This document shows positions 1,748 to 60,720 of a stretch of DNA of 64,000 nt, piece by piece. The DNA is from an uncultured bacterium (GTDB lineage: Bacteria > Patescibacteriota > Minisyncoccia > Phycocordibacterales > CAIZLB01). Position 1 is the first letter of the stretch. Every line of letters starts with the position of its first letter. The notes beneath the pieces are model-generated. The model searched no databases, was not told the DNA's origin, and saw nothing but the letters and a program-made list of their open reading frames with translations. A program made the position numbers and the translations under genes. The stretch is taken from positions 44,840-108,839 of the forward strand of contig CAIZVZ010000009.1 in the NCBI GenBank assembly GCA_903936565.1, written 5' to 3'.

Positions 1748-4453
1748 TTAACTTGTCACCTTTGATTCACTAACCATCATTCCAACTTTTCTACCTTTCA
1801 TCATTTTCTTCACATCAAAGGTAAACTCTGCATTATTGTCTGTATTCTTTGGATCAATTCCAACACTAATCGTTCCACCCTTAAGTACTCCCTGATCGAT
1901 AATCAATCCCGCCACGTTAGTTAGAATCTTTGATTGAATCAAACGCTTAAGTGGTCTTGCACCGTACTGAGGATTATATCCCTCCTTTGCAAGATATTCA
2001 TAAACACTCTCTGAGATAACAAGTTTGATTTCCTTTTCAAGAAGTCTATCAATAACTTTTTGAACTTCAATCTTAACAATATTTTTAATAGCCTCAGGCG
2101 AAAGAATATCAAAGATAACAATCTCATCAACTCTGTTTAGAAATTCTGGTCTAAAATTATCTTTAAGCGCACCCATCACACGTACCTTTGCATCTTCGTA
2201 ATTTGATTTATCAGATTGCTCAACTGCAAAACCGATTCTTTGCATATTATCAATATATTGCGCACCAATGTTTGATGTCATTATGATAATAGTATTTTTG
2301 AAGTTTACAATTCTTCCCTTTGAATCAGTCAGACGGCCATTATCAAGAACTTGAAGTAGGATATTAAATATCTCAGGATGAGCCTTTTCAATTTCATCAA
2401 ACAAGATTACAGAATATGGACGATGTCTTACAGTGTCCGTTAGTGTCGCACTCTCATCATGTCCAACATATCCTGGAGGCGCACCAATAATTTTGGAAAC
2501 TGAATGCTTCTCCATGTACTCAGACATATCAACACGGATAAGTGACTTATCATCGTCAAACATAAACTTAGCAAGTGCTTTTGTTAATTCTGTTTTTCCT
2601 ACACCGGTTGGACCAAGGAAAATGAAAGAACCGATAGGCTTTTGTGGATCATTAATGCCAGCACGTGATCTTTTAATAGTGTCAGAAACTTTCTTAACCG
2701 CATTGTCTTGTCCAACTACTTGATTCTTCAATTCATCTTCAATTCTTGCAACCTTCTTTGCTTCCTCTTCAAGCATTCTTGAAACTGGAATTCCAGTCCA
2801 ACGAGAAACAACTCCAGCGATATCATTCTCAGTGATTTCTTCCTTTAGAATTCTTCTAAATACCTGCAACTTCTTCAGACGCTTTGATTTACTCTCCAAA
2901 TCCTTATCAAGCGCTGGGATTTTGACATACCTAATATCCGCTGCTTTTGATAAATCGGCATAAGCCTCAGCTCTTTCTGCGTCTTGTCTAAGGGACTCTA
3001 ATTGCTTTTTGATTGCCTTAATATCAGCAAGAGTTTCTTTTTCATTAATCCATTTAGCCTCAGTCTCCTTTGTTCCCTCTTTTTGATTTGCAATATCAGC
3101 TTCGATTTCTTTTACACGAGCCTTTGCTGTCTTGTTAGTTTCAGCTTCTTTTAGAAGAGCCTGTCTCTCAATTTCCAAACGCATGATTTTTCTGTGAGCA
3201 ACTTCAAGTTCTGGTGGCTTATTTTCCAATGCAATCTTAAGCGCAGACGCCGCCTCATCAATCAAGTCAATTGCCTTATCCGGCAAAAATCTATCTGAGA
3301 TATATCTTGAAGAAAGTTTAACCGCTGAGATTATTGAATCGTCAGTGATATGGACTCCATGATACAGCTCATACTTTTCCTTAAGACCACGCAAGATTGC
3401 TATTGCATCTTCTTCTGTTGGTTCATTTATATAAATTGGCTGGAAACGTCTTTGTAGTGCTGGATCCTTTTCAATATGCTTTTGGTATTCTTTAAGTGTT
3501 GTCGCACCAATTGTGTGAAGTTCCCCACGTGAGAGCGCAGGCTTTAGCATATTTGATGCATCAAGGGAACCATCAGCTCCTCCAGCGCCGACAATTGTGT
3601 GGATTTCATCAATAAAAAGAATTATCTTTCCATCTGATTTCTCTATTTCTTTCAAAATGTTTTTTAGACGCTCTTCAAATTCTCCACGATACTTTGTACC
3701 AGCAACTAGAAGCCCCATATCTAGGGACACGAGTTCTTTGTCACGCAATGATTCTGGGACATCACCCATTGCAATTCTGTTGGCCAACCCTTCTGCAACA
3801 GCTGTCTTTCCAACTCCAGCTTCTCCGATAAGCATTGGGTTATTTTTTGTTCTACGTGATAGAATTTGAATTACTCTTGCAATCTCGGCATCTCTTCCGA
3901 TGACTGGATCTAATTTATTCTCTCTTGCAAGCGAAGTTAAGTTACGAGTGAATTTAATAATCGCCTTCATCTTCTTTGGACCCAAATCTGCATTTACCCC
4001 CTTTGTTGCCTTTAGAGACTCAAGCGCTTCAATGACCATCGGCTTTTCTAGTTTGAATTTGAACAATAATTCACGCGCAGATGATGCAACGTCAAATAGT
4101 GCAAGAAGCAAGTGCTCAACTGATACAAATTCATCCTTTAGTGACGCAGATACTCTGCCTGAGGCCTCTATGACCTGAGCAAGCTCTGGTGTTAGGTACA
4201 ACTGATACGATGTGGACATTGTATTAGCTGGTGCCCCGTCTACCTCAATTTCCTCCAAAAGGTTGTCTGCAAGGAGAATTGTGTCAACTTCCAACTTATC
4301 CAGGATTGCCAAAACGATGCCGTCTTCTTGAACGACAAGAGCTGTTAGGAGATGAAGCGGATTTACATGATTTTGACCACGTTCTATGGCTAATTCATGG
4401 GCTTTTTTGATCACTTCCTTGGCTTTGGTGGTAAATTTCGTTAATGGTGGCAT
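1748..4453 (-). CDS. clpB: ATP-dependent chaperone ClpB (AAA+ disaggregase)
   Basis: 901 aa with a Clp N-domain, two AAA+ modules (Walker [14 protein letters not shown] and [15 protein letters not shown]) and a long coiled-coil middle domain between them. Confidence 0.95.
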
Positions 4454-6398: not shown

Positions 6399-7139
6399 TT
6401 AGATAAAATAGCTTTTTTGGATCAATAGCACTTCCTCTTCTATAAGTCCATACTCGGATTCAGGAAATACCCCTTCAATTACGATTGGGGTATTTTTTGT
6501 AAGTGATTGTGGCGGTATATTACCAGATCTCGCAAAGGGAAAATGTGTTGTCTTAATAGCCTCAATACTTTTAAAAAATTCGCTTGTTGGTGTTGAAAAA
6601 TGAATTCCTAAGATATTATTTTGTAAATGATCAAGCTCACTATCCAAACTATCCTTTTGAATTTCATCTATGTGATCAATATCCAAAATTATTGGATATG
6701 GTCCTAGTATAGAAATATCTTTTAAATGCTGGAATCCAAACTTTCTCATATCAGAATTCTCTAGCCCAAATTTAAATTGCGGAGAAATCTTCCCTACCTC
6801 CATTTCAGTCATTGAAAAATCGTCACAATGCCAAACTGCGTATTCAATATTCAATCTCTTCATAATTACAGAAATTTTCTCAAGAATTTCATTTAGATCT
6901 TTAGCGTAAGGAGAAATTGATGGAAGGTGAAAAGAGCACGATAAACCTTTTGTCTTTTCCTTATATAGATCGAGAAGTTTGTCATCAAACTTTAAAATAT
7001 CCTCCACGGAAAAATGTATCTCAACTCGACTTACGTATTTTTTAAGTATATCTATTATAGAAAGTTGCTCATTAATCCAATCCTTTTGTGGGACCCAGAA
7101 ATAAAGACACTCTGTACTTATTCCAATTAAATTATTCAT
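6399..7139 (-). CDS. hypothetical protein (246 aa)
   Basis: Complete ORF with no confident domain assignment. Confidence 0.45.
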   Translation of the reverse strand: MNNLIGISTECLYFWVPQKDWINEQLSIIDILKKYVSRVEIHFSVEDILKFDDKLLDLYKEKTKGLSCSFHLPSISPYAKDLNEILEKISVIMKRLNIEYAVWHCDDFSMTEMEVGKISPQFKFGLENSDMRKFGFQHLKDISILGPYPIILDIDHIDEIQKDSLDSELDHLQNNILGIHFSTPTSEFFKSIEAIKTTHFPFARSGNIPPQSLTKNTPIVIEGVFPESEYGLIEEEVLLIQKSYFI

Positions 7140-7211
7140 TTTTAAAGTATAACATAATTGTCACACTCGGCTTCCAGCGTTTTCTCAGCAAATCACACAA
7201 CTAAGTAACCT

Positions 7212-17178: not shown

Positions 17179-17502
17179 TTATCTTAATTGAATTGAACCA
17201 TTCGCTGATGGTACGCCAGGAGCTTGAGGAACGTTTTGATTCAAACTGAATGTACTTGTTAGAAGATTTACCAATCCCCAAACTGATACCATCACAGCAA
17301 GACCAATAATACCCCAAATGATGTATCCTCTAGCCTCTGCTCTAGCTTCAGAATCCTTTGAGGAGAAAACTAGTTTAAAGATACCCCACAAGAAAAACAG
17401 AACCGTAAGACTTATAACGTAAGGAATAAGCCTTGTCGTGAAATCACTCACTTGCGCGAGTAACGCATAAAGGCCGCTAATTCCAGGTTGTGCAGTGTTC
17501 AT
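17179..17502 (-). CDS. VirB2/TrbC-like pilin-like protein, paralog 2 (107 aa)
   Basis: FLWGIFKLVFSSKDSEARAEARGYIIWGIIGLAVMVSVWGLVNLL. Same architecture as paralog 1. Confidence 0.55.
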   Translation of the reverse strand: MNTAQPGISGLYALLAQVSDFTTRLIPYVISLTVLFFLWGIFKLVFSSKDSEARAEARGYIIWGIIGLAVMVSVWGLVNLLTSTFSLNQNVPQAPGVPSANGSIQLR

Positions 17503-17624
17503 AATTAAATTATTTTTATTAAATGATAAGCTTATCTTTTATATAAGTAACTGAATGTCACTTATTACTATTATACATCACTATTTGAAAGTTACATACA
17601 TAGTCAACAAAAAAGCTGTGGATT

Positions 17625-17927
17625 CTAAAAAAGTCTAGGAGATGGAAAACCGGGGACCATTGCACCTGTTACACCAAAACCAAAAAAGGATATCAACAAA
17701 TTGACCAATCCCCATATCGATACCATAACAAACAATGCAACAACTCCCCATACAATATAGCCTTTAGCTTGTGCCCTTTCCTTAGAATCCCTATTAGAAA
17801 AGACTAATTTAAAAATTCCCCAAAGGAAAACCAGTACAGTCAGTATTAATATGAATGCGATAAACTTGTTAATAAAACCTATCAAAAATGGTACCAACCC
17901 CCTTGCTCCGTTCGAAGTATTTAGCAT
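17625..17927 (-). CDS. VirB2/TrbC-like pilin-like protein, paralog 3 (100 aa)
   Basis: FLWGIFKLVFSNRDSKERAQAKGYIVWGVVALFVMVSIWGLVNLL. Confidence 0.55.
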   Translation of the reverse strand: MLNTSNGARGLVPFLIGFINKFIAFILILTVLVFLWGIFKLVFSNRDSKERAQAKGYIVWGVVALFVMVSIWGLVNLLISFFGFGVTGAMVPGFPSPRLF

Positions 17928-17952
17928 GTTAGTTAATTAGTATCAATATTTA

Positions 17953-18267
17953 TTAATTAAGCTGAGGAATCAACAATCCTCCTGAGAAGAAGGTTGTTGT
18001 CAAAAGGTATACTAAGCTCCAAACAGAAATCATTACAGCGAGCCCGACAATTCCATAGGTAATAAAGGCGATTCCCTCTTGTCTTTTTTTAGGATCAGCC
18101 CCTGATGTTACAGTTTTAAAAACGCCCCATAAAAAAACCAGCAGTGCTAATGAAATAATAAAGGGTACAATATAGCCCCTAATTATATCTATTAAACTAG
18201 CAACAAGACTTCTGAAATCGTATACACCATTCACTTGTGCCATTAAAGAATTTTTATTTAAATCCAT
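17953..18267 (-). CDS. VirB2/TrbC-like pilin-like protein, paralog 4 (104 aa)
   Basis: FLWGVFKTVTSGADPKKRQEGIAFITYGIVGLAVMISVWSLVYLL. Confidence 0.55.
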   Translation of the reverse strand: MDLNKNSLMAQVNGVYDFRSLVASLIDIIRGYIVPFIISLALLVFLWGVFKTVTSGADPKKRQEGIAFITYGIVGLAVMISVWSLVYLLTTTFFSGGLLIPQLN

Positions 18268-18322
18268 TTTTATAAGTTAAGCTAATAATTTATTCTACCA
18301 TAGTCCAAATTTAGACTCCATA

Positions 18323-18727
18323 CTATTGCCCACTACCAACCTGCATAATTGTGGTTCTAACAACAATAGAAATTGCTTGTGCGCCAAAAATTATGGCGAC
18401 ACCAATAACAACATATAGAAGCATGGTTCTTGCCTTCGTAATCTTTGCAGGGTCCCCAGCCGCCAAGACAAACTTCAGACCAGCAAGGATGATGTATACA
18501 ACAGATAGGACACCAGCAATGATCTGAACTGTAGTAATTATAATGCTCAAAACTTGATCAAGGGTTGTCGTGCTACCTAGGGGGTTAGTAATTCTTCCAC
18601 TGGTATCATTGGTTGTATCTGCATATACCATGTTGGCATGTGGTGTGGTCACAAAACTTAGACCGAATACCGACACTAGCATCATGGCTCCCATAACTGT
18701 GTGTAAAATTAATTTATTTTTTTTCAT
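18323..18727 (-). CDS. VirB2/TrbC-like pilin-like protein with signal peptide, paralog 5 (134 aa)
   Basis: Signal peptide, then VYIILAGLKFVLAAGDPAKITKARTMLLYVVIGVAIIFGA. This is the classic VirB2 layout (signal peptide, helix, charged loop, helix). Confidence 0.55.
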   Translation of the reverse strand: MKKNKLILHTVMGAMMLVSVFGLSFVTTPHANMVYADTTNDTSGRITNPLGSTTTLDQVLSIIITTVQIIAGVLSVVYIILAGLKFVLAAGDPAKITKARTMLLYVVIGVAIIFGAQAISIVVRTTIMQVGSGQ

Positions 18728-18747
18728 TTTATTGACTTATTAACCTA

Positions 18748-19176
18748 TCATATTATGCTATCGTAAAAAAACGGATCAACACCCAAACTCTTTAGTATAA
18801 AGTATACAATAATCCAACCACAAAGTGTATATGCCAAACCCCACATCATCTTGGTGAGCATATCTCTTGCCTTCTTAACCTTGCCCACGTCCCCTCCTGA
18901 AGTCAAATACATAAACCCTGTGTAAAGAAGAACCAAAACTAACAATATCGCAATCAGTTGAACACCATAATGCACAATAGCGTTTATCAAGTTTATCAAA
19001 TCAACCCAACCGCATGATGCTCCGGCTAATGTACAGCCACTTAGGATATTGGACACTGGATTAACTGTATCTGCACCTGCGTATATCGGACTAAATACTG
19101 CAATAAGGGCAATCACAGCCACAAGCTTCATAGTTGGTATAAACGAGAACATTTTATAAAATTTAATTTTTATCAT
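18748..19176 (-). CDS. VirB2/TrbC-like pilin-like protein with signal peptide, paralog 6 (142 aa)
   Basis: Signal peptide, then VLLYTGFMYLTSGGDVGKVKKARDMLTKMMWGLAYTLCGWIIV. Confidence 0.5.
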   Translation of the reverse strand: MIKIKFYKMFSFIPTMKLVAVIALIAVFSPIYAGADTVNPVSNILSGCTLAGASCGWVDLINLINAIVHYGVQLIAILLVLVLLYTGFMYLTSGGDVGKVKKARDMLTKMMWGLAYTLCGWIIVYFILKSLGVDPFFYDSII

Positions 19177-25916: not shown

Positions 25917-27080
25917 TTGATTTTTTATTTCATGACAAAAGATACAGAAGAAACAACAGTTATCGCAAATGATACTGAAAAGGAAGCGGCAGAGGCTATC
26001 GCACAAATGAACGCAAGTGTGATGTCAAAGATTATTGCAGATTCTCACACTCCCCCAAGTGTCTCAGACATAGTGGAAGGAAAGGTTATCGCAATAGACA
26101 AGAAAGGAGTTTTTATAGATCTCCGACCTTATGGAACTGGAATCATCTATGGTAGAGAGTATATAAGTGCCAGAGACATCCTAAGAAAGGTTAATGTTGG
26201 AGACAGTATTGCCGCAAAGGTAGTAGAAGTTAACAACGCCGATGGTTACATCGAACTTTCACTTAAAGAAGCTAAGCAAGCTCTTATCTGGAGTGAAGCT
26301 GAGAGCGCAATCAAAAACAATACAGTTTATGATGTTCCCGTTCTTGAAGCAAACAAAGGAGGTCTTCTTATGGCATGGCAAGGTATTCAAGGATTCCTTC
26401 CAGCGTCTCAATTGAAGGCTGATAATTATCCAAGAGTTGAAGAAGGAAACAAGGATAGAATCCTTGAAGAACTTAAGAAACTAGTTGGTCAAAAGCTTTC
26501 AGTTACAATTATCGCAGCATCTCCAAAGGAAGGTAAACTAATCTTCTCAGAGAAGAATATCGCAGAAGGAGGTGAGAAAGAAAAAGTTGCAAGCAAATAC
26601 GTTGTAGGCGATGAAGTTGAAGGAACTGTAACAGGAGCCGTAGACTTCGGAGTATTCGTTAAGCTTGAAGAAAATCTAGAAGGTCTAGTTCATATTTCAG
26701 AAATTGACTGGGCGCTAGTTGAGGATCCTCGTACAATGTTTAAGGTTGGAGAAAAAATTAAAGTTAAAGTTATAGAAATTAAGGACGGTAAAGTTTCTCT
26801 ATCAATCAAAGCACTTAAGCCAAATCCATGGAAAGATGCTGAGAAGAAATACAAGAGAGATGATATCGTTACTGGAGTTGTAATTAAGTACAACAAGCAC
26901 GGAGCACTTGCAAGTATCGAGGAAGGAATCGCCGGCCTAGTTCACGTTTCAGAATTTGGAAGTGAGCCTAAGCTAAAAGAGAGTCTTGAACTTGGTAAAA
27001 GCTATACTTTTAAGATAAGTCTGTTCGATGCTAAGGAGCAAAAGATGGCACTTTCTTTTGTTGACAAAAACAAGAAATAG
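25917..27080 (+). CDS. rpsA: 30S ribosomal protein S1 (short, 4 S1 domains)
   Basis: Repeated S1 OB-fold motifs (GKVIAIDKKGVFIDL, GTVTGAVDFGVFVKL, GVVIKYNKHGALASI). Confidence 0.85.
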   Translation: MIFYFMTKDTEETTVIANDTEKEAAEAIAQMNASVMSKIIADSHTPPSVSDIVEGKVIAIDKKGVFIDLRPYGTGIIYGREYISARDILRKVNVGDSIAAKVVEVNNADGYIELSLKEAKQALIWSEAESAIKNNTVYDVPVLEANKGGLLMAWQGIQGFLPASQLKADNYPRVEEGNKDRILEELKKLVGQKLSVTIIAASPKEGKLIFSEKNIAEGGEKEKVASKYVVGDEVEGTVTGAVDFGVFVKLEENLEGLVHISEIDWALVEDPRTMFKVGEKIKVKVIEIKDGKVSLSIKALKPNPWKDAEKKYKRDDIVTGVVIKYNKHGALASIEEGIAGLVHVSEFGSEPKLKESLELGKSYTFKISLFDAKEQKMALSFVDKNKK

Positions 27081-27200
27081 GATTAAAAGTAAAGGGTGCA
27101 GGCACAATTTCTTTATTTTGTACGGCCAATGTTGGAGCCAAACTGCTGTTTGATTCCAACGCTGGCTGTACAACTTATGTGAAGCGCGCCGACGATGCAC

Positions 27201-27240
27201 AACACCAAAACCCGCATGAAAGTGCGGGTTTTGGTGTTGT
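27201..27240. terminator. perfect 17 bp-stem hairpin (caacaccaaaacccgcatgaaagtgcgggttttggtgttg)
   Basis: Palindrome followed by ttggggggg. Lies about 120 nt after the rpsA stop. Confidence 0.4.
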
Positions 27241-27322
27241 TGGGGGGGCTAAATTAGATATTCAGCCTGCCATTACGCCGCATTATGGCCGTCTCAAAGC
27301 AGCCTCGCCACCCTTACGTGGC

Positions 27323-27350
27323 TTGACATTTTGTATATGTGTGATAATAT
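27323..27350 (+). promoter_or_regulatory. sigma70-like promoter TTGACA-16-TAATAT with extended -10 (tgtgaTAATAT)
   Basis: Consensus -35 and near-consensus -10 about 60 nt upstream of the structured leader. A related promoter sits before the second cassette (28203). Confidence 0.5.
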
Positions 27351-27411
27351 TTTATAGGTATAGCTCCTTCACAAGCGCGATACATATTTTGGTGAAGTAG
27401 AGTTGAAAATT

Positions 27412-27510
27412 GGAAACTTCTTCTGAACACGGTTTTGATTGCACATTTCTTTGTATTTTACTAAGTACAAAGAAATGTGCAATCAATCCTACGTTAGGAA
27501 GAAGTTGCCA
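27412..27510 (+). promoter_or_regulatory. conserved ~100 nt structured leader (nested hairpin), copy A
   Basis: Outer stem ggaaacttcttc/gaagaagttgcc encloses a 21 bp perfect inner stem ttgattgcacatttctttgta/tacaaagaaatgtgcaatcaa. A covarying homolog lies upstream of the next gene (28296-28395). Confidence 0.5.
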
Positions 27511-27538
27511 AACCAACGACCAATCAACAACACAGCAC

Positions 27539-28117
27539 ATGAATAAATCAATAGCCCATACCATTTTTTACTATTTATTACTACCATTTCTGATTACACT
27601 TGGTTTAATTTTATTGATAGGATTTATAGTAAAAATCAATACCCGCCCACCCCAAAATCAGGGCAGCAGTTTGGAGTACACGGTGATGGTGAGGGACAAA
27701 ATCGCCATACTGCACATGATGGCAATTAAACTGGAAGAAAAGATCGGAGAACTCGATAGCCAGGGGGTCATCGATCAAGAATTCCTCCCATCGACCATCC
27801 AAGAAAAATGGGAGAAATCAGGGAGGAGTGGAAGCATTGCCTTCAATCGAGTTGTAGAAATCGCCATCGGACAAGTTCTTCTAATGAGTGAATTGCTCAA
27901 GAACGATGTGACCAGTGAATCTTCACCGACGTTTGGCCATATTGCTCGCACGAAAACAACCGTACAAGTAAATACCGCTCGACGAACAACGTACGATCAA
28001 CTCCAGGCCATGATGGCCAAATATGAACAACAACCGGAGTATTTACCTTGGTATCAAATTCCAAAGTTTTATGACACTCTCGAACCCGTAACACTGACCC
28101 CTCTCGAGGGAAAGTGA
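27539..28117 (+). CDS. small N-terminally anchored hypothetical protein, cassette paralog A (192 aa)
   Basis: Start chosen at the Met after the leader (MNKSIAH...). N-terminal TM. The C-terminal region shares ELLKNDV...TKTT with paralog B. Confidence 0.55.
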   Translation: MNKSIAHTIFYYLLLPFLITLGLILLIGFIVKINTRPPQNQGSSLEYTVMVRDKIAILHMMAIKLEEKIGELDSQGVIDQEFLPSTIQEKWEKSGRSGSIAFNRVVEIAIGQVLLMSELLKNDVTSESSPTFGHIARTKTTVQVNTARRTTYDQLQAMMAKYEQQPEYLPWYQIPKFYDTLEPVTLTPLEGK

Positions 28118-28127
28118 CAAAAACAAA

Positions 28128-28166
28128 ATCCGTCTCGCCCTCAGGGGCGCGGCGGATGTTTTTTAA
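28128..28166 (+). terminator. rho-independent terminator (conserved between cassettes)
   Basis: atccgtctcgccctcaggggcgcggcggat followed by gtttttt. Confidence 0.6.
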
Positions 28167-28202
28167 TTTATATGTTTTTAATAAATAGTCACCACCCCCC
28201 CC

Positions 28203-28231
28203 TTGACATTATACACATATGTGCTACTATT
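28203..28231 (+). promoter_or_regulatory. promoter-like TTGACA-16-TACTAT, homolog of 27323
   Basis: ttgacattatacacatatgtgctactat aligns with ttgacattttgtatatgtgtgataatat. Confidence 0.4.
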
Positions 28232-28295
28232 ATATAGTTATAGATCTTTTACATCCCTACTGAACACCTTGATGTTTTTTGATTTAAAATTCTTT

Positions 28296-28395
28296 TAAGC
28301 ATTCGGTTTGATTGCACATGCTTCTGTATTTATTTAATAAGTACATAAGCATGTGCAACCAATCCTACGAGAGGACGAAGTTGCCGAAACCAACA
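28296..28395 (+). promoter_or_regulatory. structured leader, copy B (covarying hairpin)
   Basis: Inner stem ttgattgcacatgcttctgta/tacataagcatgtgcaaccaa, followed by caatcctacgagaggacgaagttgccgaaacc. The stem middle differs from copy A, but pairing is preserved. Confidence 0.45.
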
Positions 28396-28413
28396 ACCAC
28401 TACTACCACTACC

Positions 28414-28947
28414 ATGAAATCAACAATCGCTATTCTGTCCCTCACCGGCGCTCTGGTCTTTACGGGCCTCACGGCTCTTGCCCAGTACAAAAGGGCCGAA
28501 ACCTTCAGGGACCAACTCCTTGAAATCGTCCACAACAGGACGGTTTTGACGGATAAGGTCACAGCCGAAAAGGTTGAGGTCATGCAAAAGATGGCGGACA
28601 ATCTGAAGAAGAAATTCGGCGACATCGACGACCTCGGTACCATGAAAATGTGGTGCACACCAAAGGCAATTCAAGGCCGCTGGAGTGACCACCTTAAGGG
28701 GTCGCCGACAGACAGGGACATCTACCTCGAGGCAGACATCGACAATGCTATCGTTGACCTCCTCTTTACGGAGGAGTTACTCAAGGACGACGTCCCTAGC
28801 CCCAACCAAAGGTACCGGGACATTGTCCAGCTCAAGACCACCGACCAAGAACAGGCCGCGATTCGAGCGGCATATGAACAACGTGATGAAATTGTCGCGC
28901 CATTCCAAAAGCGCATCAATGACATCATGAACAGGACCAGAGAATAA
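28414..28947 (+). CDS. small signal-peptide or N-terminal TM-anchored hypothetical protein, cassette paralog B (177 aa), GC-rich
   Basis: MKSTIAILSLTGALVFTGLTALA. C-terminal ELLKDDVPSPNQ...LKTTDQ resembles paralog A. GC is far above the genome background. Confidence 0.55.
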   Translation: MKSTIAILSLTGALVFTGLTALAQYKRAETFRDQLLEIVHNRTVLTDKVTAEKVEVMQKMADNLKKKFGDIDDLGTMKMWCTPKAIQGRWSDHLKGSPTDRDIYLEADIDNAIVDLLFTEELLKDDVPSPNQRYRDIVQLKTTDQEQAAIRAAYEQRDEIVAPFQKRINDIMNRTRE

Positions 28948-28980
28948 CCCGCCACTTGGCGGACCTCCGGTGCAAAAACA

Positions 28981-29018
28981 AATCCGTCCACCCTCCGGGG
29001 TGTGGCGGTGTTTTTTTA
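28981..29018 (+). terminator. rho-independent terminator, homolog of 28128
   Basis: atccgtccaccctccggggtgtggcggtg followed by tttttttat. Confidence 0.6.
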
Positions 29019-29157
29019 TTTGATTTATATTACTTCATTACCTAGTCCACACTCTCTAGATGAAGTTACCTAAACAACGTATTATTATGGCGGTCTCAGA
29101 TAGATATCTTTGACAAAGATTAATTGTACAAAACCGAACCAAGAAAGAACCAGATAA

Positions 29158-29739
29158 GTGAATGGAATACTCAGCAGAGAAATTGAAGCCAGATTCATTG
29201 TAAGCATTTGCCCCGAAGAAAAGGAGCCCGAGCAACTACGGCAGCTTACAATTGACCAACGATACTTGCGTGCCAAGGGACGCATCCGGCGTGTACGAAC
29301 CAAGATAGCTGGACAAGACAAAGAAAAGACGTCCGTTGTCTTGAATCGAAAATGGAAAATGGCGAATACGCTTGGAGGTAATTGGGAGATGGAACTCTGT
29401 CTTCCTAACACCTTCTTCATCGCCAGATTTTGCTTTTGGTTTCTGACCAAATTCCTCAGCGATCCAGCCTGTTACCCCATTCACAAGACCAGAACTGTTT
29501 ACGAATGGGATGGCGGCATGGAACTTGAATGGGACATATTCGCCAGCCAGCATGCCTTACCAGATGGACCATTTGGAATGTTGGAAGTTGAAGTGAGTGC
29601 AGGTTTTGACCTCGCTACGCTACAGGCCAAACTTCCCAAGTGGTTCGAGGTAAAGGATGACGTCACAGGACAAGCGTACTGGAGTAATGTGAATATTTCC
29701 CGACGGCTCCAAAGGATTTACCGCGGAAGAAGACAGTAA
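29158..29739 (+). CDS. CYTH-like (triphosphate tunnel metalloenzyme) domain protein (tentative)
   Basis: N-terminal EIEARFIV matches the CYTH EIERKFLV signature. An alternating-acid LEVEVS motif lies near the C-terminus. GC-rich. Confidence 0.45.
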   Translation: MNGILSREIEARFIVSICPEEKEPEQLRQLTIDQRYLRAKGRIRRVRTKIAGQDKEKTSVVLNRKWKMANTLGGNWEMELCLPNTFFIARFCFWFLTKFLSDPACYPIHKTRTVYEWDGGMELEWDIFASQHALPDGPFGMLEVEVSAGFDLATLQAKLPKWFEVKDDVTGQAYWSNVNISRRLQRIYRGRRQ

Positions 29740-52749: not shown

Positions 52750-53541
52750 TTATTTCTTCAACCACTCGAGCAATTCGTCACCAATCAATTGCTCGTTGAC
52801 TTCCTCGTCCGTCATGTGCACGAACTTTTCGATGTCCCGGATAACGACCAGTCCGACATTCGGGAACTCGTCGCCGAGCTGCTCGATGTAGCGGAATGTG
52901 CTTGGCTGGTTTGAACAGCCAATGAACAGGTAGTAAACCTGGTCACCACGCTCCGCGGATTCCCGCAGTAAGCGACGTGTCGGTTCCTTGTCGTCACCAT
53001 TGTTGTCGCCGTCGGTGACGTGGATGACGAGTGCGCGTTTCTTGGTTTGCGTAGTCGTAACGACCGGCTCAGCGACAGGTTTTGCCCCGCCACCAAATAG
53101 CCGGCCGAGCATTCCACCACCCTGCGGTTTAGCAACGGTTTGATTGCCGCAGCCATAGCCGAAGTGTGCCAAGTTTTTGCGCAGGACGTGTGCATAGTCT
53201 GTACCGCCATTGTAGCCGGGGACTTTGTTGATGATGCACCGGGCGATGTAACCGTCATGGTCATTCTCCGTGATTTCACCCACGTAGTAAGCATGACTGG
53301 CCCCATCACTGAACGTGAACACGTCCATCTTCTTGTCGGGATCAAAGACCATCCCCCAAGGCACGAGCCGAGTGAGAAGTCCTTGAGTGAGGCCGTCTTG
53401 ATGTTCATCCCGGAAGCTCCCACTGACGTCCAAGTTGAACGCCAATTCCATTGGAGGCGGAATGTTGATGCCACGCTTCTGGAGCGAGAGGACAAGGCCA
53501 GCTGCTGCTTTGGTGAGGTTGAGTTGTAATGGTTGTTTCAC
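52750..53541 (-). CDS. von Willebrand factor A domain protein (TerY-like)
   Basis: MIDAS-like LDVSGSF motif and downstream HVTDGDNNGD. Last gene of the ter operon. Confidence 0.65.
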   Translation of the reverse strand: MKQPLQLNLTKAAAGLVLSLQKRGINIPPPMELAFNLDVSGSFRDEHQDGLTQGLLTRLVPWGMVFDPDKKMDVFTFSDGASHAYYVGEITENDHDGYIARCIINKVPGYNGGTDYAHVLRKNLAHFGYGCGNQTVAKPQGGGMLGRLFGGGAKPVAEPVVTTTQTKKRALVIHVTDGDNNGDDKEPTRRLLRESAERGDQVYYLFIGCSNQPSTFRYIEQLGDEFPNVGLVVIRDIEKFVHMTDEEVNEQLIGDELLEWLKK

Positions 53542-53556
53542 TTGTCTATTTGCTTT

Positions 53557-54609
53557 CTATTGTCTTAGTTGTTGTTTTAGCGAGTTGAGTATCCGACTGG
53601 TTTCGCCAATTTCAGTCGGGTTTGTTTGTTTGCTACCATGACGCCCTTTTAAGTTGGCGACACTTTCCATCCAAACAGGCAATGTATTGAACACGACCTG
53701 CTGAATGATAGTTGTCATTCTCATGGGTTGCTCGATTTGGTTATCCCTCGAGAAGGAGCCTGAGCGGATTTGCCCAAGTGTAAGAGTGAGACTAGCAGCG
53801 CGGTCTTCCAACCGCTGTGCTAAATCCTCTCTTGAAATGTTTCTGAAGTAATCCGCAACGACCAAGGCCGCTGTGAGACCTGCTTCAACGTCGTCGCTGA
53901 GTTCAGCTAGAGTTCTTGAGTTTCCTTCCAAACTTTTGCTTAAATCAACGAGTGAAGATATACAATCGCGCATCAACAGAGTGAGCTGATCAATTTCCCT
54001 CAATGCTTCTTCCAGTGATGGAAGTGTGTCGATTTCTGGTGTGGCCGCCCGCATTATCTTCGCGAACAATCCAGCACCTTTTTCAAACACCTTTTCAAGT
54101 CTGATGCTGCTGAGAATTTCCATCATCCTATTTATGTACGAAGTACTTTTTTGAATGACTTCTGATCCGAGCAGCTTTAGAGTTTCCGTGACCAGGTTGT
54201 TGTGCTTTTCCTGAAGGTGTTGCCCCCAAGTAATCACGTCAACCTGATCAAGTTCGTCTTGTCTAGTGGCTTCGACAATTCTAACCACCGCATCCAAGAC
54301 TGGCTCTTTCAAATTTGGAAATTTTATTTTGAGACCCTCTCGCTTTACTGGAATGCGCTTTCGCACGGAACCAGGAATGGCGGAGGGGGTCTGAACGAGA
54401 TTGATCTCAGGTTTTTTGACGACCTGCTCTGCAGCTTTTGTAGCTTGCGCATCACCATATTCATCTCCACCAATAACCGTAGGCTTTGCTTGTGCCGAAG
54501 TGGCAGCGCCACCCATGGTTGTCGGAGTGATTTTTGTGATTGGAGGTACGGCGCACTGAGCACTGTCACCAACAACACCATTACCAATAACAGTCGGTTT
54601 CATTTTCAT
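53557..54609 (-). CDS. TelA-like protein, diverged paralog
   Basis: 350 aa helical protein. Its N-terminus MKMKPTVIGNG...KPTVIGG parallels MKPTTMGAPTVIG of the TelA at 55522. Preceded by the same leader repeat. Confidence 0.5.
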   Translation of the reverse strand: MKMKPTVIGNGVVGDSAQCAVPPITKITPTTMGGAATSAQAKPTVIGGDEYGDAQATKAAEQVVKKPEINLVQTPSAIPGSVRKRIPVKREGLKIKFPNLKEPVLDAVVRIVEATRQDELDQVDVITWGQHLQEKHNNLVTETLKLLGSEVIQKSTSYINRMMEILSSIRLEKVFEKGAGLFAKIMRAATPEIDTLPSLEEALREIDQLTLLMRDCISSLVDLSKSLEGNSRTLAELSDDVEAGLTAALVVADYFRNISREDLAQRLEDRAASLTLTLGQIRSGSFSRDNQIEQPMRMTTIIQQVVFNTLPVWMESVANLKGRHGSKQTNPTEIGETSRILNSLKQQLRQ

Positions 54610-54647
54610 TTCTTGTGGTTGAAGTTTTCAAAGTGCTATGTAGGAAT

Positions 54648-54790
54648 TTCCTCGGACCAAAATTACGTCCTTCTCCCCACTAGATTCCAAACACCGTGTT
54701 TTGAATCTAGATGAGGAGGGCAACATTAATGGAGTTGCCCGTGAACCTGTGGTGGTTCCCAGCAAGAGAAAAGTTCTTGCTACTTGTTTC
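54648..54790 (-). repeat. about 130-140 bp conserved structured leader, copy 1 (upstream of the TelA-like gene)
   Basis: About 95% identical to 56786-56915. Contains hairpins ctagattccaaacaccgtgttttgaatctag and gggcaac...gttgccc. Confidence 0.7.
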
Positions 54791-54813
54791 TAATTGATCA
54801 AAACGGGTGGGTG

Positions 54814-55419
54814 TTATGAGAAGTACCCCAACACAGCGTTGAAGTCACCCATAAACCCGGAGCCGACCGGAGCGTACTCCCAACCCTTGTCGCTGCGAAT
54901 CAAGCTGCCCATCTGGACCGCATTAAACGCAGCAAATTCGTTGGTAAGTTGATACTCGCCGAGCACCTTGCCCTCGTCGTCCTTTATGGTGATCGATGCG
55001 GATTTGACACCAGCAAAGGTTGCACCACCGTGGACTGTGACGAAGATTGGGATTTCGTTGACTTCGCTTCCAACCTTGTCACCAAAGATAGTGATCAGTT
55101 CATCGATGTCCGTCGTAACACCAGTGCGTGCGTCACCCGAGTGAGTGAGTGCACCGCAAGGTGTGGAGAACGACCTGTCTTGATTCGTGACCAGCATCCC
55201 GTTGGGATTGGTACTTTTTGCGTTGTAGGTGCTGAGCACCTGGGCAAAGTCATTGACCTTTGCCCCGTTACCACCGTTGGTGGCGAGCAGCGCATGTGCA
55301 TCCACGTCGTGCGTGCTGTCCCAGCGAAGCTCCACCGTGAAGCGGGCGCCTTTGTTGAGTGACAGTTGCAGTTTCTGGACGACATCACCTGGTTTTGCTA
55401 ATGGAAGTGCCAATGGCAT
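54814..55419 (-). CDS. terD: TerD-family stress protein
   Basis: LRWDSTHDVDAHALL, CGALTHSGDARTG and DDEGKVLGEYQLTNEFAAFNAVQMGSLIR..GWEYAPVGSGF match TerD/CABP signatures. Start placed at MPLALPLAK instead of the ORF-track start at 55491. Confidence 0.8.
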   Translation of the reverse strand: MPLALPLAKPGDVVQKLQLSLNKGARFTVELRWDSTHDVDAHALLATNGGNGAKVNDFAQVLSTYNAKSTNPNGMLVTNQDRSFSTPCGALTHSGDARTGVTTDIDELITIFGDKVGSEVNEIPIFVTVHGGATFAGVKSASITIKDDEGKVLGEYQLTNEFAAFNAVQMGSLIRSDKGWEYAPVGSGFMGDFNAVLGYFS

Positions 55420-55476
55420 ATTTTTGTTTTTTCTTTGTTTCTGATTGTTGTTGTTTGTCGTGCGGTTTGGTTTCTC

Positions 55477-55504
55477 CCCGCGGGCGCGCACGCGCCCGCG
55501 GGGA
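55477..55504. promoter_or_regulatory. perfect 28 bp GC palindrome (ccccgcgggcgcgcacgcgcccgcgggg) in the telA-terD intergenic region
   Basis: Arms of 13-14 bp, entirely G/C. No T-tract. Confidence 0.4.
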
Positions 55505-55521
55505 TTCCCTTGACCTTCTGC

Positions 55522-56718
55522 TTACGCTTTAGGTTTCGAGGAAAGTTGTGCGAGCTCGCCACGCGCTTCGGCAAACATGCCACGCGCAGTGTCAAACTTT
55601 TTGAGATTTTCTGTTCTTGCTGTGTCGACCAACGCTTGAACCTCACCAGTTAAGGCAATAAGTTCTTGGAGTTGGTTCGCCTGTTGAAGCCTGTTGTCCC
55701 CCGGAGCGTTTGCCGCCGTGGTAACAACCTCCCTCATGAGAGTTCCGCGGATTTGTCCCAGCTGCCGATCGAGATCAGCTTGCTTTGCAGCTAGCTGTTG
55801 CACACCCTTGACCTGCATTGCTCCATGAAGAGCGATCAAGGTTGTTTTGATGGAACTGAAACGTGTTGTCGCGGTTGTCGCGGTTTCTTGCAGAGTTTGA
55901 ACCCCAGCCGCCTCGACCTGTTGAATGACCAACTGATCTGCAGGCAACCTGGAGAAAACACCTTCAAGTGCCAAAGCCCGAGATTCCAAAAGTTGAAGTT
56001 TGTTCTCCGCTTCTTGTAGATCAGACTGTGCCAACACACTATTCGCGTCCAACCTCGCCCGTCCAACCTCGGCTCGCGCCGACTCGAGAAACTTGTGAGC
56101 CACTACAGCAACAACTGCGAAGTCATTGATATGTTGACGATAAGTCCCTTTAAGCTGATTGAAACGCTGAAGTTCACGGAGGAGTTCATCCAAAGCTTGC
56201 GCCAATTCCTTCTCGAGGTTTTTCATCACCCCCATTAGGTCTTGAGTACGGCCCGAGACTAATTCACATACAGCTTCGTGTGCAGTATGAGCTGCATCCG
56301 CAACCGCACGCTTACTCATAAAGCCAAGGACTCTCGCCTTGAACCCCAGTTTTCCCGATTGAATCTGCTTGAGCAGATCGGGAAGTTTTGCATCCTCAAC
56401 ACCGCTTTGCAGGCGGTCAAAGAGTGCAAAAAGTTTCGGGTTTCTAGCGCGTTCGATCCCTGACAAGAACCCATCAAGGGTCTCGGTAAGTGCAATTTCA
56501 GCACCGTGTCCAATCATCAGAATGTCCCCCGACGTGATGTCAGAAAACCTCAGACCACTGAGCATAGCTTCCGCAGTTGGAATTTGCTCCGGCAACAGCG
56601 CGATTTGTCCCGCATTACCCGCAAGGGCAACACTGAAGTCCGTCGCTTGTTGAGGAACCATTCCACTACCAGTTGATGCACCAATTACGGTCGGTGCCCC
56701 CATCGTTGTCGGTTTCAT
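55522..56718 (-). CDS. telA: TelA (toxic anion resistance / KlaA family) protein
   Basis: 398 aa, largely alpha-helical/coiled-coil, size and composition typical of TelA. Sits between TerC and TerD. Confidence 0.6.
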   Translation of the reverse strand: MKPTTMGAPTVIGASTGSGMVPQQATDFSVALAGNAGQIALLPEQIPTAEAMLSGLRFSDITSGDILMIGHGAEIALTETLDGFLSGIERARNPKLFALFDRLQSGVEDAKLPDLLKQIQSGKLGFKARVLGFMSKRAVADAAHTAHEAVCELVSGRTQDLMGVMKNLEKELAQALDELLRELQRFNQLKGTYRQHINDFAVVAVVAHKFLESARAEVGRARLDANSVLAQSDLQEAENKLQLLESRALALEGVFSRLPADQLVIQQVEAAGVQTLQETATTATTRFSSIKTTLIALHGAMQVKGVQQLAAKQADLDRQLGQIRGTLMREVVTTAANAPGDNRLQQANQLQELIALTGEVQALVDTARTENLKKFDTARGMFAEARGELAQLSSKPKA

Positions 56719-56785
56719 GTTTGTTCTCTCTGTATCTAGGGCTATGTACCCCGTTTTGATTTTAGTTGTGAATGAGCATAGAGAT

Positions 56786-56915
56786 TTCTTCGGACCAAAT
56801 TACGTCCTTCTCCCTACTAGATTCCAAACACCGTGTTTTAAATCTAGATGAGGAGGGCAACATTAATGGAGTTGCCCGTGAACCTGTGGTGGTTCCCAGC
56901 AAGAGAAAAGTTCTT
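56786..56915 (-). repeat. conserved structured leader, copy 2 (upstream of telA)
   Basis: Near-identical to 54648-54790. Confidence 0.7.
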
Positions 56916-56960
56916 GCTACTTGTCTGAATCCCTAACCCCCTTGGGTCGGCGCCCCGCTG

Positions 56961-57809
56961 TTAGCAGAACAAATTGGTCTTCACAACCTTGAATATAATT
57001 CTCCCACCGTTCAGACTCCACCTAATAGGAATCGTCACGACATAAAAAAGTTTATCCAAGATCACTACAAACTTTTGTCCTACAACAAGCACCGGCTTAA
57101 GCACCTTTCGTCCAATTCGCGACTCCGCATACCATAAGCTGCACAAAGTGATTACCACGATGCCAACAAACTTGTGTACGGAGTTGATGTGAAAATGAAT
57201 TTGAAAGTGTTCAAGCGACAGTTCAACCAACAGAATGAACCCAACAAAGCCAACTAGCATGAAAGCCGTCTTCTGCAAAATCGGAAATCTTTCAATCAGC
57301 TTGATGCAGTAACCTGCAACGAATCGCAGCGCCAGAATGCCAATGAAGACACCGAGGCATACGACCCACAAGCGCTTGTCCAGCGCGACGGCCGCCACTA
57401 CGTTATCCAGCGACAACGAGAGGTCCATGATTTCGATTTGTATTACTGTTGCGACCAGGCTTTTGTAAACCTTAGCCGAGCCGCTTTCATGGATCTCCTC
57501 CTCTGTTTTGCCAGAGAGATGTTCCACCATGAGATAGACTAGGTACAACGCACCAAATATCTTCAACCACGGATTCGAGGCGATAAACGCCACAAGCGCC
57601 AAAGCTAGACCACGAAACGCGTACGCCCCAATGATACCCAACCTCAACGCCTGCTTCTGTTGCTTCTTTGGCAGATCGCTTGCCATCGCGGCAATCGCCA
57701 TCGCGTTATCGACGGAGAGCAAGCCCTCAATCAAGATAAGCGATAATATTACGGGGATTGCTGTACTGAATTCACTCAGAGTGGGCAATTGTGAGAACAC
57801 GGCAGTCAT
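56961..57809 (-). CDS. terC: TerC-family integral membrane protein
   Basis: Two LSxDN repeats (LSVDNAMAIAAMA and LSLDNVVAAVAL). About 7 TM helices. Confidence 0.8.
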   Translation of the reverse strand: MTAVFSQLPTLSEFSTAIPVILSLILIEGLLSVDNAMAIAAMASDLPKKQQKQALRLGIIGAYAFRGLALALVAFIASNPWLKIFGALYLVYLMVEHLSGKTEEEIHESGSAKVYKSLVATVIQIEIMDLSLSLDNVVAAVALDKRLWVVCLGVFIGILALRFVAGYCIKLIERFPILQKTAFMLVGFVGFILLVELSLEHFQIHFHINSVHKFVGIVVITLCSLWYAESRIGRKVLKPVLVVGQKFVVILDKLFYVVTIPIRWSLNGGRIIFKVVKTNLFC

Positions 57810-58163
57810 TTCTATTTTCTTTATTTGTTGTTTCTGTTTTCTCTACAAATTACCAGTCTTCCGAGACTAGATTTGTTAGAGTATGAAATCTGCAGAATCA
57901 AATGCCGTGCACATTTGAAATACAGACTTCATGCTCTAACAAATCCTTAAGGTTTTAAATGAGCTCTATGAATTAACTTGACATACTGTATATTTCTGGT
58001 GCTAATGATAATCCGTTTCGCAAAGTTGTCAATATTTATTAGACGTTCAGAGGGCTATAAATCTATCTTTTTCTGGATGAATCTTTACAAGATACAATAA
58101 AGGCTTAAAATATACTAATCTGGAATAATTGCTTTTGTGATACGTCTAGTTTTAATTAGACGT

Positions 58164-59801: not shown

Positions 59802-59826
59802 GTTTTTTAATTTAATAAGGAGAATT

Positions 59827-60720
59827 TTATAAAGTGAATGAAGGAATACCGGGATTATCTGTTTTAATTAATTGATGATGTCTAATTCTAGATTCTTGTC
59901 TCACCACCTCAAAGCCCTTAGCATACTTTTCGACAGAACCATAACCATCATTAACGCTAGAAATGTAGAGTCCAAAAAGCATTTCATCACTTAGACGTTT
60001 ACAGAAATCTTCAAGCTCTTCTTGATTTTCCCAAGAAAGGATAAATCTACACAGACGAGAATTCAAAACAAATTCATCTGGTTTTTTCATCAACAGTTGC
60101 AGAGTGTCCAAATCATTTACCCATTTGTGATTAATTCGATTTTCAATATCGGGATCGTTTTTACCCGAACCCACATCAACTACATAGATAAATATAATCT
60201 CTTCAAGGCCTGCTTTTTCCATAAAATCTATAATTTTTTGCTCGTGGGCGCCTGTAATTCTAGCGTCTTCAACCAATATCAATCTTTTTCCTTTTAGCAA
60301 AAATGGATCAAAGGAAAGGGTGTCTCTCTTCATATTTTCTAGCCTTTCTCTGTGTGATAATTTACTGAAATCACAGACTGGAGCTGAGGACCTATGAATT
60401 TTTAAAAAGGTTAAGGGTTGATTCTTAGCAGATAACAAAAGCTCATTTAGCATGTAGTGGAAATACATAGCCAAAGAATTTGCTGATGGCGGTGTATACC
60501 AATAAGGTGAAGTAGACACAATGAACTCACTACTTTCTCCAGAAATTTTTTCTAAGGAAAATTTATTCAAAAACTCCGACATCATACTTTCAGCAAATTT
60601 CATTGCTGTAGGTTTGTGACCATACTTAAATTTACTGTACTCAGTGAAATCGAGTGTTGGTTTATTTTCTAAATTATTTTCGGCATCTATTGTGTACGCA
60701 GATATTCTGTTGATTTTCAT
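59827..60720 (-). CDS. PRTase-like domain protein, paralog of the C-terminal half of 58164..59801 (297 aa)
   Basis: LILVEDARITGAHE, YSKFKYGH, and a ...LNSRLCRFILS...NDGYG block aligned with the upstream gene. Confidence 0.5.
   Translation of the reverse strand: MKINRISAYTIDAENNLENKPTLDFTEYSKFKYGHKPTAMKFAESMMSEFLNKFSLEKISGESSEFIVSTSPYWYTPPSANSLAMYFHYMLNELLLSAKNQPLTFLKIHRSSAPVCDFSKLSHRERLENMKRDTLSFDPFLLKGKRLILVEDARITGAHEQKIIDFMEKAGLEEIIFIYVVDVGSGKNDPDIENRINHKWVNDLDTLQLLMKKPDEFVLNSRLCRFILSWENQEELEDFCKRLSDEMLFGLYISSVNDGYGSVEKYAKGFEVVRQESRIRHHQLIKTDNPGIPSFTL

Follow-up and report, generated by a model that had tools for sequence, protein, structure and literature searches.

Directly 3' of rpsA, on the + strand of a 64,000-nt stretch of DNA from an uncultured bacterium (the window), two expression units follow one another head-to-tail (positions 27300-29020). 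They share one orientation, with a start-to-start spacing of 876-880 nt. Each has its own promoter, an untranslated leader, an open reading frame (ORF) for a member of one protein family, here called X, and a terminator. Compensatory changes preserve a structure within the leader, and the ORF that follows it is hypervariable. The combination is probably best read as a cis-acting structured mRNA leader on an accessory gene whose product is probably exposed at the surface, with two old alleles of that gene standing in tandem in this genome.

The host is a bacterium of the candidate phyla radiation (CPR, Patescibacteria), as is clear from the 82% identity between its GyrA and proteins that bear the labels Candidatus Pacebacteria, Paceibacterota or Parcubacteria. 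No Shine-Dalgarno-like motif was found before any of the 39 long ORFs of the window, and at 22 of the 39 a -10 hexamer ends 5-11 nt 5' of the start codon (7 of 39 at a control offset). From these counts, the genome appears to be largely leaderless and devoid of Shine-Dalgarno motifs. In such a genome, a conserved leader of about 185 nt is an exception.

An initial annotation of this DNA had described four parts common to two adjacent units (a promoter, a nested hairpin leader, a conserved tail and a terminator), and all four are present. Between the units, the promoters are 77% identical (52% when shuffled), the core of the leaders 77% (shuffled, 51%) and the terminators 80% (shuffled, 48%). 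The window contains the tail, CAATCCTACGNNAGGANGAAGTTGCC (CAATCCTACGnnAGGAnGAAGTTGCC), exactly two times; none of 100 shuffles contains it. The leader is not conserved throughout, however: conservation is confined to the core, and both the 5' third (55%) and the stretch before the ATG (58%) are close to shuffled values. The coding regions, at 52.7% identity, hardly exceed their shuffled value of 51.1%, and their third codon positions agree at only 29%. The encoded proteins are strongly diverged, as had been supposed, at 29% identity over 117 aa (E = 5e-13), but their homology covers about 115-117 residues rather than just a short C-terminal block. The second coding region is indeed the more GC-rich, with a GC fraction of 0.52 against 0.43, and of 0.67 against 0.45 at third positions.

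Nor is the leader confined to this locus: it stands at the same position, 3' of rpsA, in six other genomes. The six further loci for which DNA was available (L003, L004, L005, L007, L011 and L012) came from contigs encoding proteins of the family and from two pattern scans, one of genome contigs and one of metagenome contigs, each of which returned a single true match (L005, L007). Four other loci from the pattern scans (L006, L008, L009 and L010) were rejected as chance matches. Wherever upstream sequence is present, the unit lies directly 3' of rpsA and its structured 3' element (in L004, L005, L007, L011 and the contigs carrying proteins P0006 and P0010), and it is found also in L003 and L012. 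All six loci have the same order of parts: a TTGAC(A/T) -35 box, an extended -10 of the form TGn-TAnTAT, the box ATAGCTCTTTTAAAAG next to the predicted transcription start, the hairpin domain, an A/C-rich stretch, the ORF and the terminator. The promoter of unit 1 scores 10 of 12 in a promoter scan, TG included, its architecture recurs in all seven full-length orthologues, and the position of its -10 box would place the start of transcription near 27357. The terminator block of unit 1 is conserved in L004, L011 and L012. (The first 29 nt of L003 are the Nextera adapter GTGGGCTCGGAGATGTGTATAAGAGACAG, an assembly artefact of the contig end, which calls for caution over the promoter-proximal sequence of that locus.) No further copies of the leader, for which the annotation had proposed a search, came to light: a covariance model of the leader core found none beyond the known ones in the window and about 220 kb of related loci. 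The leader motif pattern was also missing from a collection of viral contigs, and a phage origin was dropped on that ground.

Close relatives may lack the unit altogether. Five do so (L013/L014, L015, L016/L017 and L018); of these, L015, L016/L017 and L018 have GyrA proteins 91-95% identical to that of the window, and L013 and L014 belong to the same 90%-identity cluster of S1 proteins. In the relatives without a unit, what comes immediately after rpsA is pth, HIT/NYN genes or some other gene. The interval between rpsA and pth is therefore variable, and X is an accessory gene present in 0, 1 or 2 copies. In L011, an insertion sequence with a DDE_Tnp_1 transposase (2491-3942) comes directly after the X terminator, and a gene for a Y1 transposase of the IS200/IS605 type (6759-7178) lies 4 kb further on, so the interval seems to attract insertions.

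All pairs of X proteins are 22-43% identical, in a star-like pattern, and the two proteins of the window (30%) are no closer to each other than that of unit 1 is to its orthologues. The family is also small: when 1.8 billion cluster representatives were scanned exhaustively with HMMER, ten clusters emerged. The contrast between gene and surroundings that the annotation had drawn from the two units alone (77-80% in the non-coding flanks, 52.7% in the cargo) holds strongly between genomes as well. Across rpsA and its 3' element (1436 nt), the identity of L011 to the window is 94.9%. Within the unit, alignment is restricted to the promoter, the P1 hairpin of the leader and the terminator (84-89%), and the two ORFs do not align at all by BLASTN. 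Similarly, the leader of L012 is 88-91% identical to that of unit 1 (against 83% for the leader of unit 2), and the proteins of L012 and unit 1 share only about 35%. An ORF cannot reach saturation by point mutation in place while its flanks diverge by 5%. The alleles must therefore be old ones, exchanged by recombination (or else products of targeted hypermutation), and the identity profiles suggest that they are probably swapped by homologous recombination. The third-position GC of X coding regions, 0.45-0.69 against 0.22-0.30 for rpsA, gyrA and neighbouring genes, might possibly reflect recombination that is frequent and accompanied by GC-biased conversion, or else a separate or foreign pool of alleles within which exchange takes place. 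A search for a diversity-generating retroelement was negative: the only repeats between 26.5 and 30 kb are the non-coding blocks, the ORFs scanned include no reverse transcriptase, and divergence spans the whole ORF.

Might the two units be simply a recent tandem duplication under relaxed selection, or one whose flanks alone undergo gene conversion, with a hairpin that has no function? The units are certainly adjacent, in the same orientation and evenly spaced (876-880 nt), and a long palindrome can remain paired through repair templated on its other arm. The sequence has not decayed evenly, however. Third positions at 29% and coding regions at the level of shuffled sequence indicate an old split, while the non-coding blocks remain at 77-80%. 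These flanks have not been homogenised within the genome, for the leader of unit 1 is nearer to that of L012 than to that of unit 2, and the same blocks are conserved in genomes that carry a single unit and so offer no partner for conversion. Decay of the ORFs is contradicted, moreover, by the motifs that the X proteins share and by their common fold, predicted with confidence. We consider this explanation very remote.

The protein itself matches nothing in Pfam, NCBIfam, PADLOC or a sequence search of the PDB. An AlphaFold2 model based on a 10-sequence alignment (mean predicted local distance difference test score, pLDDT, 79) has one N-terminal helix (residues 3-33), joined through a short disordered linker to a helical bundle that spans 42-163, mostly above 90. 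The N-termini are short and positively charged (MK, MKK, MKRR) before a hydrophobic stretch; they are not conserved and have no consistent L-x-x-C lipobox. By the positive-inside rule, this suggests a signal-anchor that leaves the helical domain on the extracellular side (N-in/C-out), and on the strength of that anchor X is probably exposed at the surface.

If the ORF is free to vary, what is conserved in the leader? Its core can be drawn as three helices: a closing stem (P0), a long hairpin (P1) and a short hairpin (P2). The fold was judged on eight leaders from seven genomes, all from one narrow clade, against 500 shuffles and against a control in which pairing partners were shifted ("slid"). 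In unit 1, the hairpin region (27410-27511) is a nested inverted repeat of about 100 nt, enclosing a perfect inner stem (27435-27486), with a folding energy of -56.2 kcal/mol (z = -10.0). The hairpin of unit 2 (28305-28365) folds with z = -5.9. The inner stem amounts to a perfect 24 bp in unit 1 and to about 21 bp with two mismatches in unit 2, while the outer stem, strong in unit 1, is degenerate in unit 2, so that the nested hairpin reported for both units can be upheld only for the first. The compensatory changes reported for the inner stem are borne out, with three double changes (T-A to G-C, T-A to C-G and C-G to T-A) and one mismatch.

Compensation extends, in both P1 and P2, to the orthologous loci, in agreement with the annotation's suggestion of a selected structure. 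In an unedited MAFFT alignment, 90.5% of P1 cells are paired (27-48% when slid), and five pairs exhibit double changes, a count reached in 1 of 500 shuffles. The basal 7-12 bp of P1 are invariant (UUGAUUG / CAAYCAA; UUUGAUUG... / ...CAAYCAA), which suggests recognition of a specific sequence, and the pairs above them covary. The 12-nt halves, TTGATTGCACAT ... ATGTGCAAYCAA, are almost invariant in all eight leaders, including four identified by way of the protein instead of the motif, and the gap between the halves ranges from 25 to 33 nt. P2 is paired in 90% of cells, with double changes in three of its five pairs (a switch from UCCUA/UAGGA to AUCCA/UGGAU). P0, aligned by hand, is paired in 77% of cells, an invariant UUGCC joining a GGCAA-like segment upstream that lies at a variable distance from P1. 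For the full model of P0, P1 and P2, in a register-corrected and N-padded alignment, 86% of cells are paired (28-41% when slid) and twelve pairs have double changes, a count that none of the 500 shuffles reached. The leader thus has what is expected of a regulatory leader, a conserved and covarying structure 5' of homologous genes, in eight leaders from seven genomes. A 5'-proximal hairpin, predicted in four of the seven full-length leaders, is a probable further element.

Several features favour RNA of the + strand as the molecule that folds. The wobble pairs of P0 are valid in seven cases on the + strand and in two on the - strand; L012 retains an extended P0 through A-to-G changes that yield U-G pairs; the promoter points in the same direction; and the spacing of the P1 half-sites is variable, to which a hairpin is indifferent but a dimer bound to DNA would hardly be.

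The alternative is that the palindrome works as DNA. P1 would then be a recombination site, folded or duplex, like attC or like the Xer1 sites of Mycoplasma vpma genes, served by a recombinase that is encoded elsewhere and inserts, excises or swaps units. There is much in the behaviour of the locus to recall a cassette, as the annotation had remarked: close relatives carry 0, 1 or 2 units at one fixed site, whole alleles are replaced between 95%-identical flanks, and the units form a tandem array with short, box-like junctions. P1, which gives no strand preference, resembles attC, if loosely, in being an imperfect palindrome with conserved outer inverted repeats and a variable yet palindromic centre, next to exchangeable ORFs in tandem. 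Furthermore, vpma recombination sites lie within conserved 5' untranslated regions (5'UTRs; PMC2268961). The resemblance ends with behaviour, however, and membership among integrons or recombinase-driven phase-variation systems did not stand up. No integrase (IntI included), transposase or reverse transcriptase was found in the gene tables within about 6 kb or among the roughly 40 ORFs scanned in the 64 kb of the window, and there is no attI. The hairpin lies 5' of the ORF, within a transcribed leader and behind a promoter that belongs to that unit, with one hairpin per unit and none 3' of the last ORF. The stem of unit 1 is perfect, without extrahelical bases, and the R and L boxes of attC (RYYYAAC/GTTRRRY) are missing, with no GTTRRRY in register. 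The ORFs are all of one family, unlike the unrelated ORFs of integron cassettes, and a centre of 25-33 bp far exceeds the core spacer of a tyrosine recombinase. Lastly, P2 and P0 covary outside the palindrome, and the G-U pairs of P0 are valid only as + strand RNA. A DNA-level cassette seems to us improbable.

The near-invariant half-sites could also be imagined as the palindromic operator of a dimeric repressor, which would sit 3' of the promoter and block transcription. Half-sites of 12 nt that hardly change in eight sequences, downstream of a strong promoter, are what one would look for. A repressor bound to both would, however, have to tolerate shifts in helical phase as the spacing varies between 25 and 33 bp. 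An operator would also have no need of a self-complementary spacer, let alone one kept so by compensatory changes, and it leaves the covariation of P2 and P0 unexplained. We think an operator highly improbable.

The leader is not part of the protein. Units 1 and 2 read its conserved block in different frames, and in six of the eight leaders there are in-frame stops between the hairpins and the ATG. The leader is therefore non-coding, and the protein begins at the ATG directly before the hydrophobic helix. The same facts rule out the upstream in-frame starts, giving ORFs of 235 and 211 aa, that appear in some annotations. An AGGA within the leader was considered as a Shine-Dalgarno motif and discarded, as some 45 nt separate it from the ATG and none of the 39 ORFs carries such a motif. 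The sequence of the 23-45 nt that precede the AUG is variable, but always A/C-rich and G-poor; in unit 1, the 35 nt 5' of the ATG, which overlap the end of P0, comprise 15 A, 13 C, 4 G and 3 T. The start region is predicted to be largely open, with an unpaired probability of 0.5-0.88 in seven of the eight leaders (a mean of 0.78 around the AUG of unit 1).

Perhaps, then, the structure is the product, a small RNA that is processed from the transcript or acts in trans, with the ORF co-transcribed or loosely linked. The structured domain, at about 105 nt, is the best-kept part of the leader, the stretch that connects it to the ATG varies in length and sequence, and a duplex of 21-24 bp would be a plausible processing site. 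Yet there is no terminator or T-run between structure and ORF, the domain never occurs without the ORF, and it is missing wherever the ORF is missing. In one test, of the rpsA 3' element against the start region of X, no target-like complementarity emerged (z from -0.7 to +1.0). A small-RNA gene strikes us as quite unlikely.

Some observations weigh against a cis-acting leader RNA on exchanged alleles. The distal part of P0 is degenerate in unit 2, and P0, being aligned by hand, is the weakest of the helices. P1 contains nine A-C cells (wobble pairs on the - strand) to eight G-U cells, from which it follows that P1 by itself shows neither which strand folds nor whether RNA or DNA does so. Eight leaders from one narrow clade make for modest covariation statistics. 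In L003, most of the start region is predicted to pair (unpaired probability 0.28), and the leader has no visible expression platform, neither a terminator-like site within it nor, in the predicted folds, a sequestered start codon. The transcription start is placed by sequence, and recombination is read from identity profiles rather than from breakpoints in a population.

No known RNA family accounts for the leader. The Rfam comparison that had been proposed, made with Rfam 15 at gathering scores, identified only eight tRNAs in the window and no leader family. With permissive scores over 27000-29200, the best hits were models of plant and animal microRNA hairpins, at no more than 35 bits against cut-offs of 67-211. 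The leader is a candidate for a new cis-regulatory RNA motif of narrow, genus-level distribution. It resembles orphan cis-regulatory motifs of 5'UTRs in being a covarying, multi-helix structure upstream of homologous genes, with invariant nucleotides at helix bases and the junction, and departs from them in that no expression platform is visible, and in a start codon predicted to be unpaired, a P1 much longer than a typical aptamer helix, and its confinement to one genus-level clade. There would be some room for a switch, to judge from predicted folds: in unit 1, L012 and L004, P2 and an extended P0 are in competition, and in unit 2 the domain can be closed by either of two stems, one of which, in the minimum-energy fold, pairs CCGAA (28384-28388) with UUCGG (28302-28306).

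Structured leaders that stabilise a message at its 5' end or are processed by RNase III include those of E. coli ompA and rpsO-pnp. The leader described here is like them in being long and structured, in preceding a gene for a probable envelope protein, in its predicted single-stranded initiation region and in a duplex of about two helical turns; pnp, like the present unit, follows a ribosomal-protein gene and its terminator. Against this, there is no relation in sequence, a 5'-terminal hairpin is predicted in only four of the seven leaders, and the host has no Shine-Dalgarno motifs. P1, with 21-24 bp, is of the length expected of an RNase III substrate (some 20 bp or more of nearly perfect duplex); no rnc gene was seen among the ORFs scanned in the window.

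As for the variable gene, the closest parallel may be the vsp and vpma loci of Mycoplasma, in which conserved 5'UTRs precede coding sequences with little or no similarity (PMC2268961). The likeness extends to clusters of membrane-anchored envelope proteins (their surface location being inferred in the case of X) and to homopolymer tracts near the promoter. In the present case, however, every unit brings a promoter and a terminator of its own, and the two are direct repeats, with no sharing of a promoter by inversion. There is no adjacent Xer-type recombinase, no conserved signal peptide or lipobox and no intragenic repeats; copies number 0-2 per genome; and variation is seen between strains. 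The locus is an addition to known kinds (the orphan structured leader and the variable envelope-protein locus within a conserved bracket) and not a new category.

How might a cis-acting leader and a hypervariable ORF fit together? The unit is a self-contained accessory element that Paceibacteria-like CPR bacteria of one genus-level clade may carry 3' of rpsA. It consists of a strong, sigma-70-type promoter with extended -10, an untranslated leader some 185 nt long, an ORF of about 190 aa and an intrinsic terminator. Purifying selection holds the promoter, leader and terminator in place while the ORF varies, and the conserved non-coding blocks would serve as homology arms for the exchange of alleles, a process that would have left this genome with two alleles in tandem. 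For the leader, a post-transcriptional action in cis, as RNA, is the most likely. Its structured 5' domain might resist nucleases or be recognised by a protein, P1 having the size of a substrate for RNase III or another protein that binds double-stranded RNA, and the unstructured A/C-rich stretch could be a landing site for ribosomes independent of a Shine-Dalgarno motif. One might go further and regard the bracket as a portable module for expression and exchange, by which deeply diverged alleles of an exposed envelope protein are swapped, stacked or dropped at the rpsA site without a recombinase, in effect a cassette system or one of antigenic variation, with the hairpin also a regulatory sensor (a new riboswitch-like or protein-controlled class of RNA). 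That extension is speculative, and we hold it to be rather unlikely.

Table 1. Features of the rpsA-X region of the window.
Feature	Position	Strand	Remarks
rpsA (ribosomal protein S1)	25932-27080	+	Anchor gene; Pfam S1 domains; BLASTN 84-95% to relatives
rpsA 3'UTR element	27095-27246	+	Rod-like hairpin and intrinsic terminator (27199-27246); outside the repeated unit, left border of the variable region
Unit 1	27322-28166	+	Promoter, leader, ORF, terminator
Unit 1 promoter	27323-27350	+	-35 TTGACA 27323-27328, 16-nt spacer, TG 27342-27343, -10 TAATAT 27345-27350 (TGaTAATAT)
Unit 1 untranslated leader	27357-27538	+	Folding z = -10; conserved blocks read in different frames in the two units; in-frame stops in 6 of 8 orthologues
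Conserved box near transcription start, ATAGCTCCTTCACAAG	27360-27405	+	5' arm of predicted 5'-proximal hairpin; conserved in the alignment of leaders; moderate support
Unit 1 three-helix domain	27409-27512	+	P0 closing stem 27409-27420 / 27501-27512; invariant UUGCC 27505-27509
Unit 1 P1 hairpin	27435-27486	+	21-bp arms 27435-27455 / 27466-27486, extendable to 24 bp
Unit 1 P2 hairpin	27487-27499	+	UCCUA-CGU-UAGGA
Unit 1 A/C-rich, G-poor stretch before start codon	27513-27538	+	Without Shine-Dalgarno motif
Unit 1 coding region	27539-28117	+	192-aa protein X; predicted N-terminal membrane helix and all-alpha domain
Unit 1 terminator block	28114-28165	+	Box GTGACAAAAACAAA (its TGA is the stop codon), G+C-rich hairpin, T-run
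Junction between units	28187-28202	+	Box GTCACCACC, then C8 tract abutting -35 of unit 2
Unit 2	28202-29018	+	Promoter, leader, ORF, terminator
Unit 2 promoter	28203-28230	+	TTGACA 28203-28208, 16-nt spacer, TG, TACTAT 28225-28230 (TGcTACTAT)
Unit 2 untranslated leader	28237-28413	+	Alignment, folding, reading-frame analysis
Unit 2 P1 hairpin	28308-28362	+	Arms 28308-28328 / 28342-28362; one C-U and one A-C mismatch
Unit 2 P2 and invariant UUGCC	28363-28388	+	P2 28363-28375; UUGCC 28381-28385
Unit 2 coding region	28414-28947	+	177-aa paralogue of X; third-position GC 0.67
Unit 2 terminator block	28970-29017	+	Alignment to unit 1 block
Downstream box, TACCTAGTCCACACTC / TACCTAGTYCACCCTC	29039-29054	+	Kept 3' of the unit in L003, L004, L007 and L012; right border of the module

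The left border of the variable region is sharp: the identity of L011 falls from 95% to unalignable immediately 3' of the rpsA element. In an alignment from five genomes, this element has 56 predicted pairs, 10 of them with double changes. It is about 150 nt long and has no match in Rfam; GUGCA/UGCAC closes it, and both AAACUGCUGUUUGA, at the apex, and GUGAAGCGCGCCGACGAUGCAC are invariant. It is also present in L004 (3361-3500), L005, L007, L011 and L015, with the basal part only in L013 (5250-5400), and so is found as well in relatives that lack the X unit. The possibility that the element pairs with the start region of X as a small RNA was rejected, the duplexes being no better than shuffled ones (z from -0.7 to +1.0) and L015 having the element without X. 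The 12-mer TGACAAAAACAA occurs both at the 3' end of rpsA (27062-27073) and in the stop/terminator box of unit 1 (28115-28126), and this coincidence may be due to chance in A-rich sequence.

Boxes of the YCACC type at the borders of the units (27308, 28187 and 29044) may mark the junction of the duplication. The only G or C homopolymers of at least 6 nt in the 64 kb are a G7 (27242-27248), about 75 nt upstream of the -35 box of unit 1, and a C8 (28195-28202) that abuts the -35 box of unit 2; in L012, the 3'UTR of the X gene contains a C9. These may be slipped-strand tracts for phase variation or scars of recombination.

Beyond the second unit, the region between the X terminator and the next gene (29020-29157; also L004 4400-4545 and L012 880-1020) is strongly conserved, containing TACCTAGTYCACCCTC, TAGATAGATATCTTTGACAAA and an A/C-rich ACCAAGAAAGAACCAGATAA before the start codon. 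It may be another conserved leader. The gene that follows (29158-29739) has a third-position GC of 0.49 and encodes a protein of 193 aa, for which searches of Pfam, NCBIfam, PADLOC and PDB sequences gave nothing significant; its identification as a CYTH-domain protein was dropped for want of support.

Elsewhere in the window, five tandem paralogues of a small T4SS_pilin protein (VirB2/TrbC-like) adjoin a gene for a solute-binding protein on the - strand (17179-19176), an array that recurs in relatives (L016-L018). A GC-rich island (up to 0.53) on the - strand at 52750-61701 contains a Ter-type cluster (vWA-TerF-like, TerD and TerC) and two ORFs without matches, and the cluster is followed by two genes for ComF-like phosphoribosyltransferases (one fused to a HAD hydrolase) and one for a TrmB-family regulator.

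Gene regulation and envelope variation in CPR bacteria are poorly known. A conserved bracket around saturated alleles is the pattern expected under diversifying selection driven by hosts or phages, and a covariance model of the leader offers a handle by which to find and type such alleles in metagenomes. The leader is also a natural test case of how leadered mRNAs are translated and stabilised in an organism that is otherwise leaderless and free of Shine-Dalgarno motifs. If it does no more than stabilise its message, then the interest of the leader is local. If, on the other hand, it senses a signal or mediates the exchange of cassettes, then it would represent a new mechanism of regulation or of variation.

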